DNA of 64,000 bases from Longimicrobiales bacterium (GTDB lineage: Bacteria; Gemmatimonadota; Gemmatimonadetes; Longimicrobiales; Gaopeijiaceae), in contig OZ220732.1 of NCBI GenBank assembly GCA_965116905.1, positions 3,680,001-3,744,000 on the forward strand, read 5' to 3'. The position numbers were made by a program, and so were the translations under genes. Positions 10,352-14,616 of this stretch are shown in pieces; positions within the stretch are counted from its first letter, which is position 1; the number at the start of each line of letters is the position of its first letter. Below the pieces are notes generated by a model. That model saw nothing but the letters and a program-made list of their open reading frames with translations. It had not been told where the DNA came from and did not search any database.

Positions 10352-11083
10352 TCATCCCAGCTCCCAGAACTCCCCGCTCAACCCCGCGTCCCGCAGCAGC
10401 GCCTGCCTGGCCCGGGCCGAATACGGCCGCCATGCGTCGTCGAGCCGCCCCGCGTACCAGTCGTGGCTCAACTCGCCCAGCACCTCGACCGGGACGATGG
10501 CGCCGGGATCCCCGCCCCGCCCCCGCTCCCACGCTCTCGCATCCGCTTCCGACCGGAAGGCCACGATGTTGCGTCAGGTGAAGCCGATGTCGTCCCAGAA
10601 GTCGCGCACGGGCACGGCCAGGCGGACAACGGCTCCGCGAGGCCCGGCCCGGCCACGCGTCATGGTCAGGTCGAAACGCGTGCCCGACTGGGGACAGCTG
10701 GCGCGCGTCCGGCCATCGGTGTCGAGAAGCAGGGGAATCGCCAGCGCGTCCCAGGCGCAGTTCGCCCAATACGCGGCGGCAGGCGTCTCGACCCGGTACG
10801 GCGTGGGCACAGCCGAGAACGGGTGGGCCATCCAGACTTCGCCGCGTCGATCCAGCGCCAGCACGCGGGCGTCGGCGAGGAAGCGAAGGGCCCCCTCGAT
10901 CCCGGTTTCGGCCGCGCCAGTTTCGACTGCGCCAGTTCCGGCCGCGCCGGTTTCGGCCGCGCCGAGGTCGGCGGCAAGCTCGGCGGCGAGTTCGGCGCGC
11001 GATGGCACCGTCCCGGTGTCCCGGATCCGGCGGTAGAGGTGGCCGCGCAGGCGCCAGGCGAAGGCTTCGGCGGGCGCGGTCAT
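10352..11083 (-). CDS. MerB-like (alkylmercury lyase family) probable selenoprotein, Sec at UGA 10574-10576 (residue 170 of 243)
   Basis: HPFSAVPTPYRV, WANCAWDAL and SCPQSG motifs, then WDDIGFT-UGA-RNIVAF continuing in frame to EFWELG-stop; SECIS-like hairpin follows the UGA. Confidence 0.85.
10538..10573 (-). promoter_or_regulatory. Putative bacterial SECIS element of the MerB-like gene
   Basis: UGA-CGCAACAUCGUGGC-CUUCC-GGUC-GGAAG-CGGAUGCG: 5-bp upper stem, G-starting loop 19 nt after the UGA, lower stem CAUC/GAUG. Confidence 0.7.
10902..10961. repeat. In-frame 15-nt tandem repeat x4 (GAAET-like) inside the MerB-like HTH region
   Basis: ccggtttcggccgcg / ccagtttcgactgcg / ccagttccggccgcg / ccggtttcggccgcg. 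Confidence 0.85.
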
Positions 11084-11517
11084 GGGTTCGGCGACGCCGT
11101 CCGGCGTCTCCAGTCCAGCCATGCATCCAGGCTCAGGCGGTCCTCTTCGAACAGGGCCAGCACCACGATCAGCAGCAGGACGCGCGGGATGACGTGGGTG
11201 TGGAACGCGTACAGCGGCTCGGCCAGGAGATGCCCGAAGGTGACGAGCATGAGGACGCATCCCAGCCCGACCGCCGCCGCGAAGCGCTTCCAGCCGGTCA
11301 GCATGAGGGCGCCGCCGATCAGTTCGACGTAGGGGACCACGACGCCGGTAAACCAGAGCGACCACTCGGGCAGCGGGCCCGAGGCGTAGGGCTCCACGAA
11401 GAGGCTCCTGGCATGCTCGACCGCGCCGAGCTGGAACACCTTCCAGAAACCGGCGGCGAAGAAGATGAGGCCCAGGATCACCCGTGCCACGAACACGGCC
11501 CAACACTTCGGTGTCAT
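11080..11517 (-). CDS. DoxX-family membrane protein
   Basis: RVILGLIFFAAGFWK and PYVELIGGALMLTG motifs, 4 TM helices, SLD C-terminal motif; GGAGAGGA RBS; ATGA coupling to the MerB-like gene. Confidence 0.85.
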   Translation of the reverse strand: MTPKCWAVFVARVILGLIFFAAGFWKVFQLGAVEHARSLFVEPYASGPLPEWSLWFTGVVVPYVELIGGALMLTGWKRFAAAVGLGCVLMLVTFGHLLAEPLYAFHTHVIPRVLLLIVVLALFEEDRLSLDAWLDWRRRTASPNP

Positions 11518-11783: not shown

Positions 11784-14117
11784 ATGTCACACCTGACACA
11801 AGACCTGAGAATCATCGAGCGCTACACGGATCAGCCGGCGCGCATGCCCGCCGAGCTGCGGCGGCGCATCGAGGACCGCTGGGACGGGGAACCCGTGCAG
11901 CTCTACGCGATGGCCGACCTGGACGAGGCCATGACGCTCACCGAGCGGTGGTTCGCCGTGGGACCCTCGCGTGGGGCAACCGCGACCCGGCGCAGCGACG
12001 GCTCATGGAGGATCGACTCCTTCGAGCGCCGCGATGTGGAGGGCGTCCGGGAGATACCCGGCCTGAGCAGCACGGTCCTCCTGGTCCTGGGCCCCGCGGG
12101 TGAGCGGCCCCTGGCGAGCCTGCGCTACACGCATCGCCAGCGGCGCGCGATGGAGAATCTGCGCTTCGTGCTGGAACACGGGATCGCGCCGGCGGCCGCC
12201 GTGCTCAGCGCGGATGGCGAGGACGGCGCGGAGCTCGATGGCGAGGACGCCAGGTCACTCGCCGACGCGGACCTCGAGTACGAACGAGGCGTGGCCGGCC
12301 CCGTGCGGGAGGCGCAGGCCCTGGTGGGCGGTACGCGCAGGGCGGTTCTGTGGAGGCTGCTCAGCTACCTGGGGCCATACAAGACCCGGATGCTGGCCGG
12401 TTTCGCCGCGGCCGCCCTCATCACCGGGGTGAGCCTCGTGCCGCCCTTCCTGGCGGGCTACCTGATCGACGAGGTCGTCCGGCCCGCCCGTGACGGGTCG
12501 CTCGCGATGGCCGACGCTCTGCGGACGGCGTGGATCGCGGTCGCCGCCATGGCCCTGCTGTACCTGGTGCGGGAGGGGGCGGCCCACGTCCGCCTGAAGC
12601 AGATGAGCGTGCTCGGAGAATTCGTGGCGCGGGACCTGCGCACCGAACTGTACGAGCACCTGCAGCGTCTGAGTCTGAGCTTCTATGCCCGGAAGAAGAC
12701 GGGCGGCCTCATCACCCGGGTGAGCTCGGACACGGACCGGCTGTGGGAGTTTCTGGCGTTCGGGATCGTGGACGTATCGCTGTCGGCGGTGATGCTCGCG
12801 GGGCTGAGCGCTGTGCTGCTCAACCTGGACTGGCGGCTGGGGCTCGTCATGATCCTTCCGGTGCCTCTGCTGTGCTGGTCGATCTTCCGGCACGGCGAGC
12901 GCATCCACCGCCTGTTCGCGCGGGCGTGGCGGAAGTGGTCGGGCCTTACGGACATCCTGTCGGACACGATCCCCGGGATGCGCGTCGTGAAGGCGTTCAA
13001 CCAGGAGGACCGCGAGAAGCAGCGCTTCAACGCCAGCAACGACGCCGCGATGGGCGAGTTCAACCGCATCCACCGCGTCTGGACCTTCTTCTGGCCGGCG
13101 CTGATGCTGGGTGTGCACGTCATGACCATGGCCGTGTGGGCGCTGGCGGTTCCGCGGCTCCTCGGTACACCGGGAAGCTCCGGCAACCTCACCCCGGGCA
13201 CGTTCGTCTCGTTCCTCCTGTACATGACGATGTACGTGCAGCCCATCGAGGTCATCGGCCAGATGGCCAGGGTGATGAACCGGGCGACGAGTTCCGCCCA
13301 CCGCGTCTTCGAGGTGCTGGACACCGAACCGGAGGTGCGGGACAGGGCGCGCCCCGTGCGGCTGGAACCGGTCCGCGGGGCCGTGGAGTTCGACTCGGTG
13401 ACCTTCGGCTACGACGGCGTCAAGCAGGTGGTGAAGGGCGTGTCCTTCTCGGTCCAACCCGGCGAGATGATCGGACTCGTAGGGCCGTCGGGCGGCGGAA
13501 AGACGACCGTCACCAACCTCATCGCGCGCTTCTACGACGCCACGGGCGGGCGCGTGCTGATCGACGACACCGACGTTCGCACACTCGACACGGGCCACTA
13601 TCGGCGCCAGATCGGGATCGTGCTGCAGGACCCGTACCTGTTCCACGGCTCCATCCTCGAAAACATCCGCTACGGCGACCCGGAGGCGTCGCTCGACGCG
13701 GTGGTGGAGGCGTCGCGGGCGGCCAATGCGCACGACTTCATCTGCCGGCTGCCGCTGGGCTACGACACGGTTGTCGGGGAACGCGGGCAGACGCTGTCCG
13801 GGGGTGAGCGCCAGCGCGTGTCGATCGCCCGCGCGATCCTCCACGACCCGCGGATCCTGATTCTGGACGAGGCGACGTCGGCCGTCGACACCGAGACCGA
13901 GCGCAAGATCCAGGAGGCCATCGACCGGCTGGTTTCCGGCAGGACCGTGTTTGCCATCGCGCACCGGCTGTCCACGCTGGCGCGCGCGAACCGGATCTTT
14001 GTCATGAAGAACGGCTACCTCGTCGAGGCGGGTACCCAGGGAGAGCTGTTGGCGATCGAGAACGGCGTCTACCGGAGGCTTTACGAGTTGCAGATCGAAA
14101 TACGAAAGGACGATTGA
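11784..14117 (+). CDS. ABC exporter (fused TMD-NBD) with ~190-aa N-terminal extension
   Basis: Walker A GPSGGGKT, signature LSGGERQR, Walker B ILILDEATS, IAHRLST; TM domain. Confidence 0.95.
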   Translation: MSHLTQDLRIIERYTDQPARMPAELRRRIEDRWDGEPVQLYAMADLDEAMTLTERWFAVGPSRGATATRRSDGSWRIDSFERRDVEGVREIPGLSSTVLLVLGPAGERPLASLRYTHRQRRAMENLRFVLEHGIAPAAAVLSADGEDGAELDGEDARSLADADLEYERGVAGPVREAQALVGGTRRAVLWRLLSYLGPYKTRMLAGFAAAALITGVSLVPPFLAGYLIDEVVRPARDGSLAMADALRTAWIAVAAMALLYLVREGAAHVRLKQMSVLGEFVARDLRTELYEHLQRLSLSFYARKKTGGLITRVSSDTDRLWEFLAFGIVDVSLSAVMLAGLSAVLLNLDWRLGLVMILPVPLLCWSIFRHGERIHRLFARAWRKWSGLTDILSDTIPGMRVVKAFNQEDREKQRFNASNDAAMGEFNRIHRVWTFFWPALMLGVHVMTMAVWALAVPRLLGTPGSSGNLTPGTFVSFLLYMTMYVQPIEVIGQMARVMNRATSSAHRVFEVLDTEPEVRDRARPVRLEPVRGAVEFDSVTFGYDGVKQVVKGVSFSVQPGEMIGLVGPSGGGKTTVTNLIARFYDATGGRVLIDDTDVRTLDTGHYRRQIGIVLQDPYLFHGSILENIRYGDPEASLDAVVEASRAANAHDFICRLPLGYDTVVGERGQTLSGGERQRVSIARAILHDPRILILDEATSAVDTETERKIQEAIDRLVSGRTVFAIAHRLSTLARANRIFVMKNGYLVEAGTQGELLAIENGVYRRLYELQIEIRKDD

Positions 14118-14118
14118 A

Positions 14119-14616
14119 GTGAACGACGCGAGAATGCAGAAGGGGACTTCAGACCGAGGCGCGGTCGTGCTCCGTTGGGGACCCGACGGCCAGCTGTGGG
14201 CCGAAACCGGGGGACGCCGCGCCCCCGTAGTGGTTCACCGGTGCTTTCCGTGGTCCGATCCGGCCCGGCACATCTCCCTGCGGGATCATGACGAGGAGGA
14301 GTTCGCCTACGTCCCCGACGTGTCGGAGCTGGAGGAGGAGTCGCGCGCGGCGCTGAAACGTGCGCTTGTCGCGGCCGGGTTCCTCCTGGAGATTACCGCG
14401 GTCGAAGACGTTACCGAGGAGGTTGAGATCCGGAACTGGGCAGTCCGAACACGCCAGGGATCGCGCCGGTTCCAGACACGGCTGGACGACTGGCCGGTCC
14501 GGATCGCCGGCGGGGGCCTGCTGATCCGCGACCTGGCCGGAGACCTCTATCACGTCCCCGATCCGGAGGCGCTGGATCCGGCCAGCCGCAAATGGCTCTG
14601 GGCGTACGCGGGGTAA
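14119..14616 (+). CDS. DUF1854-family protein
   Basis: VHRCFPWSDPARHISL, WAVRTRQGSRRF and LLIRDLAGDLYHVPDPEALDPASRKWL patterns; adjacent to its usual ABC partner. Confidence 0.75.
   Translation: MNDARMQKGTSDRGAVVLRWGPDGQLWAETGGRRAPVVVHRCFPWSDPARHISLRDHDEEEFAYVPDVSELEEESRAALKRALVAAGFLLEITAVEDVTEEVEIRNWAVRTRQGSRRFQTRLDDWPVRIAGGGLLIRDLAGDLYHVPDPEALDPASRKWLWAYAG

Follow-up and report, generated by a model that had tools for sequence, protein, structure and literature searches.

In the lyase MerB, R-Hg is held by Cys96 and Cys159, and Asp99 supplies the proton to the carbon (PMC10114901), and the signature of the family is given as Cys96, Asp99 and Cys159, with Cys117 (PMC8261052). A selenocysteine (Sec) at the Cys159 site has already been published for SaoL, where it forms part of a CU motif in a protein encoded by a nine-gene operon of anaerobes (Haft and Gwadz, bioRxiv 10.1101/2022.07.06.499078). 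The SaoL entry is the sole MerB-like selenoprotein in the available portions of two reviews (PMC13188914, PMC9312934), and the term 'MerB' does not occur in the main texts of deep-Sep, BSepDB and SelCysML. The gene analysed here is, judged by its sequence, a member of a different, variant branch. It lies in a window of 64,000 nucleotides, the whole stretch of DNA that was analysed, from a Longimicrobiales bacterium, with the following features.

10352..11083, minus strand: merB-like gene, 243 residues when read through the UGA (PF03243, E 1e-25)
10546..10559, minus strand: SECIS-like hairpin CUUCC-GGUC-GGAAG over the F-R-S-E codons, supported by codon conservation and a consensus fold
10574..10576, minus strand: in-frame UGA, predicted Sec170, aligned to E. 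coli MerB Cys159
10748..10759, minus strand: Cys109-x-x-Asp112, the aligned equivalents of MerB Cys96 and Asp99
10905..10980, minus strand: low-complexity A-x-T-G-A repeat insertion of ~19 residues, the lowest-confidence part of the structure model
11080..11517, minus strand: doxX/MauE-like membrane protein gene, 145 residues, with Pfam DoxX and MauE both over cut-off

From ATG 11083 the merB-like frame runs for 169 codons to the TGA at 10576-10574, and then for 73 codons to a stop TGA at 10352. The first-pass annotation had described a hidden MerB-like frame that continues coherently through an in-frame UGA to EFWELG-stop; its coordinates and motifs were reproduced, and the observation of an intact MerB-fold frame with an in-frame UGA at the Cys159 position is confirmed. 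The product contains WANCAWDAL (C109, D112), SCP (C130) and FWDDIGFT-U170-RNIVAFRSE before the EFWELG terminus, and comprises an N-terminal helical region, the MerB lyase domain and a C-terminal extension of ~35 residues ending GL.G.FW. The insertion at 10905-10980 is a strain-specific expansion of a 15-nt repeat in the N-terminal region, missing from relatives. A scan for promoters and terminators found none.

We compared the full-length product to MerB (NF033555, NF009710; PDB 3F0O, 3F2F, 1S6L). The Pfam MerB model, PF03243, is matched over its whole length by residues 89-210 (90 bits against a gathering cut-off of 27), which bears out the fit to this family. Alignment to solved MerB chains places C109, D112, C130 and residue 170 on Cys96, Asp99, Cys117 and Cys159, with the register at Cys159 fixed by a C160S mutant chain, in agreement with the Cys/Asp/Sec triad proposed earlier. 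AlphaFold2, run with Cys in place of Sec, predicts the MerB fold with a pLDDT of 93.7 and a pTM of 0.90, and 11/11 Foldseek matches at E<=0.001 are MerB. The window protein differs from MerB in its predicted Sec at the Cys159 position, the lack of Cys160, a structural-alignment identity of ~21%, the C-terminal extension and the lack of a mer operon. Its NCBIfam scores are 36 and 42 bits for the MerB models NF033555 and NF009710, against cut-offs of 200 and 193, and no NCBIfam model outside MerB and SaoL matches it.

The window protein shares with SaoL (NF040728) the MerB fold, the Cys/Asp/Sec triad with Sec at the Cys159 position, truncation at the UGA in databases, and an activity that is predicted in both. 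However, it scores 24.4 bits on the SaoL model against a cut-off of 140, and four relatives score 23-46 bits. The Sec site reads T-U in the window branch but C-U (or CC) in SaoL, and is followed by ~73 rather than ~50 residues. SaoL belongs to the nine-gene SAO operon, whereas the neighbours of the window gene and its relatives belong to other families in a Pfam scan. Hosts also differ, with the window branch in Gemmatimonadota, Actinomycetota, Acidobacteriota and Marinimicrobia records, and SaoL in anaerobic Firmicutes, spirochetes and deltaproteobacteria. In a 51-row tree, in which deep forks are weak and SaoL is represented by proxies scoring 82-108 bits on its model, the window protein is placed among 25 rows, both Sec and Cys forms, that make up one branch (90/97). 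Canonical MerB (100/98) and the best SaoL proxies (100/99) fall outside this branch, and a quick tree of 141 rows shows the same. By these comparisons the gene belongs to a separate, C-terminally extended MerB-like branch that is neither SaoL nor canonical MerB.

Cys MerB-like proteins of the same branch (e.g. P0118, P0124 and the Ralstonia megaplasmid match H9) share the clade and a C-terminal WY..R...W...GL.G.FW extension, but have a Cys codon and no hairpin, often carry CxxC for CxxD, and in some cases are fused to LuxR, GNAT, glyoxalase or PhzF domains. Two Cys forms, L204:4419-5552 (Ralstonia) and L132 (Gemmatimonadota), both lie near a DUF2000 gene.

Conservation of the UGA was assessed by searching GTDB with a DNA pattern over W-D-A and F-W-x-x-x-G-x-T that leaves the next codon free. 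This codon is TGA in all 68 loci found, and TAA, TAG or TGY in none. By record title, 43 of the loci are Gemmatimonadota, 13 Actinomycetota, 6 Acidobacteriota and 3 Marinimicrobia, with 3 labelled Gammaproteobacteria; close homologues of the protein are named Gemmatimonadota or Longimicrobiales. Past the TGA, 63 loci run 69-75 codons in frame, two stop at contig edges and three are longer. The site reads T-U throughout the 68 loci, where the Thr is set by the search pattern, and also in loci found by profile. The profile search, over 1.8 billion representatives, gave 342 clusters (50% identity) at E<=1e-30. Among the best 150 of these, 68 end exactly before the Sec column at the protein level, and the remaining 86 aligned stretches have Cys at the column in 72 cases. 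The placement of Sec at the Cys159-equivalent position by the first-pass annotation is thus upheld by the alignment, the invariant TGA and the Cys of other homologues. Its expectation of mis-annotation as a fragment also held: databases store the gene cut at the UGA, with 117 of 120 homologues among the matches listed ending at this column, in a form of 150-180 residues. In the contigs of 4/4 public runs the UGA is without variants, against the assembly error that had been raised as a refuting possibility. Two of these four runs are labelled sponge metagenome, and metatranscriptome contigs also cover the gene, although contigs cannot show transcription or co-transcription. The counts here and below include genomes flagged as unpublished, namely G069 (locus L046; among the 68 loci and the 45 genomes behind them), G685 (among 35 genomes with stop-free matches and in the 141-row tree), G644 and G706 (among 211 genomes with selA) and G056 (in genus-level and Gemmatimonadota counts); no conclusion rests on any of them.

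Bacterial SECIS elements lie directly 3' of the UGA, with a G early in the apical loop. The hairpin CUUCC-GGUC-GGAAG, assigned to this role at the outset, was recovered at the same coordinates with its loop beginning 19 nt past the UGA. Its support comes from conservation and not from folding energy, which is not significant when taken alone (z of +0.1 to +1.5 against shuffles, i.e. not more stable). Across 65 distinct downstream sequences the hairpin codons are frozen, with TTC in 64/64, CGG (Arg) in 65/65 and TCG (Ser) in 62/62, compared to 80%, 35% and 35% for the same codons elsewhere in these genes, over a GC range of 44-73%. RNAalifold on 35 sequences gave a consensus stem of 6 pairs that carries a GGUC loop, the outer pairs showing changes on both sides. 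The 4.2 Mb genome holds two copies of the sequence TTCCGGTCGGAR, of which only the one in the window gene is 18 nt from a TGA. In the four Cys-form genomes checked (4/4), a Cys codon is present and the hairpin is gone. One decaying copy, L137 / L035 (G348, the same record as G062), has a second TGA, a lost C-terminus and a mutated hairpin.

The host genome (G000), one contig of 4.2 Mb that is 97% complete, carries selA, selB, selC (tRNA-Sec) and selD, the four genes that the first-pass annotation had suggested looking for. The selD gene (C1:641772, plus strand) has its own in-frame TGA. Outside the window, another gene at C1:3656670 (plus strand), presumably a formate dehydrogenase alpha subunit from its motif, has an in-frame TGA and a similar GGUC-loop hairpin, and 17 tRNA genes are arrayed within 2 kb at C1:1296478-1298432. 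The UGA forms track selA. It was found in 43 of the 45 genomes behind 46 of the 68 loci, the two without a match being draft MAGs. Across 351 sampled Gemmatimonadota genomes there are 44 near-full-length matches, 41 of them with one TGA, in 40 genomes, and selA is present in 40/40; two of the four Cys-form genomes (three full-length matches, one partial) have no selA match. Within the class of G078 (Acidimicrobiia by record title), 211 of 301 genomes have selA, including 29/30 with a TGA-bearing MerB match, the exception being a draft MAG, vs 23/35 with stop-free matches only (Fisher p 0.002, a value that is overstated as kin are not independent). Given the TGA in all loci, the frozen hairpin codons, selABCD and the tracking of selA, the UGA very likely codes for Sec in the full-length product, and SelB almost certainly reads the hairpin and inserts Sec at this codon.

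Several further MerB-like branches were seen. In a sister branch (L058:3580-4302, plus strand; also L183, L187, L188 and L189), C-G-x-E replaces C-x-x-D, the UGA is in the same position, and the same TTCCGGTCGGAA hairpin follows it; this branch has 71 homologues, most truncated at ~150-160 residues, and L058 holds both branches within 1 kb. Three of its members (L184:784-1680, L185:1246-2118 and L186:2814-3677) have TGA at both ligand positions (U-G-M-E and F-N-U) and carry a fused cyclase-like or AAA domain. A MerB-like gene on a third, long branch, L152:2940-3668 (plus strand; G275), also has TGA at both ligand positions and adjoins an ArsR regulator, an ArsP-type permease, a thioredoxin and a methyltransferase. 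Finally, five Cys forms are fused to a LuxR HTH (P0109, P0132, P0157, P0186 and P0222). Those placed in trees are nested inside a Sec clade (99/90), which suggests a Sec-to-Cys reversion in a regulator.

We propose a function by analogy with MerB. Cys109 and Sec170 would grip a soft organometal or organometalloid (R-M+), Asp112 would give the proton, and the metal-carbon bond would be cleaved by a protein acting alone, outside any mer operon. MerB-like protonolysis of a metal-carbon bond in a candidate organometal or organometalloid is the reading we lean towards, since the MerB arrangement is kept with Se for one S and Cys-x-x-Asp is present in 68/68 truncated forms vs 32/72 Cys forms, a comparison biased in that truncated matches must be closer kin to rank. 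Retention of the Asp in all 68 is expected if it matters as proton donor. Selenium binds mercury very tightly, and methylmercury may be cleaved in vitro. Given this tight binding and the absence of MerA from most carriers, classical mercury resistance is a less likely function than the scavenging or slow turnover of organic Hg, Pb, Sn or As compounds.

A binding or sensing role without catalysis, in which the Cys/Sec pair only binds a soft metal or electrophile as a sink, chaperone or sensor domain, is possible but in our estimate not probable. The fusions of relatives to LuxR (the five Cys forms) and to class III adenylate cyclase or AAA domains (sister-branch Sec forms) point to sensing and against protonolysis, and together with the Cys-x-x-Cys that replaces Asp in 28/72 Cys forms and the general absence of MerA they support such a role. 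A weak Foldseek match (E 1.5) to a NosDFYL chain, which we take to be the copper chaperone NosL, points the same way. Against it, the window protein and its close relatives have no fusion partner, every truncated form retains Asp112, and the LuxR fusions are derived Cys forms nested inside a Sec clade.

Improbable, in our view, is a thiol/selenol oxidoreductase that cycles a Cys109-Sec170 bond and is fed by the adjacent DoxX protein. Bacterial selenoproteins are for the most part regarded as redox enzymes (PMC9312934). The doxX stop overlaps the merB-like start (ATGA at 11083-11080), and this coupling, as described by the first-pass annotation, is present in the window; the functional doxX-MerB module that it had suggested is not supported, as the link to doxX is confined to the host genus, where doxX is often separated from the merB-like gene or found without it. 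Matches to doxX occur in 22 of the 68 loci, abutting the gene in 14 (one partial), separated by an intervening gene in 7 and as a damaged downstream copy in 1; all 22 are from the host genus or from one near-identical locus labelled Acidobacteriota. The other 46 loci have no doxX match. Among 36 genomes of the genus, 18 have the merB-like gene and 25 have doxX, with both in 17 and doxX only in 8, one of which keeps a 5' remnant of the merB-like gene. Thus 17/18 carriers in the genus also have doxX, but 8/25 doxX-bearing genomes are without the merB-like gene. Outside the genus, doxX of the window used as query gave no match in 24 genomes, and 284 neighbouring proteins, mostly from other lineages, include a single DoxX_2 by Pfam. 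The synteny that was to be looked for among relatives is therefore an adjacency in the host genus only: doxX shows genus-level local synteny, and there is no conserved partner. Clustering of ORFs from the 68 loci gave synteny within Longimicrobiales only and no conserved operon. The idea of doxX as a second selenoprotein was rejected, as the TGA present in 7 matches is, in the two aligned cases (L063 and L100), the gene's own stop near the tail. At 11784-14616 the window holds a divergent ABC transporter with an N-terminal extension, then a DUF1854 gene, syntenic within the genus only.

An ordinary methylmercury-resistance lyase, paired with a remote or non-MerA mercury reductase, is more improbable still. 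The triad is intact, and about half of merB-carrying genomes lack merA in one survey, which also argues that demethylation without MerA is harmful to the cell (PMC8261052). As noted at the outset, neither merA nor merT was found near the gene; in the host genome no merA is over cut-off and no merT was found, two MerA candidates being rejected (372 and 327 bits against a cut-off of 454; the one that was read lacks the C-terminal Cys pair), and its three MerR-family genes lie far from the merB-like gene. MerA is over cut-off in 4/80 carrier genomes (a subset of carriers; 17 candidates were scored in each), a frequency that speaks against mer-type resistance, and the protein is placed outside the canonical MerB clade. 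The 284 neighbours include no Mer protein by Pfam, and a mer or ars partner is found among them only beside the distant lineage L152; GNAT, DinB, glyoxalase, methyltransferase and alkylation-repair genes recur but are given no weight here, and the downstream methyltransferases, considered as ArsM, are not ArsM. That the UGA is a true stop, in a pseudogene, split gene or assembly error, has a negligible chance despite the short database form, a GTG at 10564 that could open a 70-residue ORF and the unremarkable stability of the hairpin, given the absence of TAA and TAG from the 68 loci, the frozen synonymous sites after the UGA, the tracking of selA, the Cys of full-length relatives and the lack of variants in four runs.

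We found neither a description of the window branch in the literature nor an NCBIfam model for it, although it may be entered under a broad 'MerB-like' heading. It is apparently a large, widespread and uncatalogued selenoprotein branch in many uncultured bacteria. Surveys of mercury demethylation use Prodigal for gene prediction and retain a sequence only if it has Cys96, Asp99 and Cys159 (PMC12484752), and MerB was filtered by Cys159 in a further study (PMC8261052); such filters would discard all UGA members. A more far-reaching idea, which we put forward tentatively and regard as doubtful, is that Se-dependent metal-carbon cleavage without MerA is widespread, with a selenolate capturing the metal, and would form a hidden demethylation sink for methylmercury (or organic As, Sn or Pb) in sponge-associated and other uncultured bacteria, Sec having been recruited repeatedly in the MerB fold, up to both ligand positions. 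Should the protein cleave methylmercury, the potential for demethylation is being undercounted; otherwise the protein would show what stand-alone MerB-fold proteins do, a role that has been called an open question (PMC8261052). Nature offers Cys, Sec and double-Sec variants of a single site, with which the contribution of selenium to metal-carbon cleavage could be tested directly.
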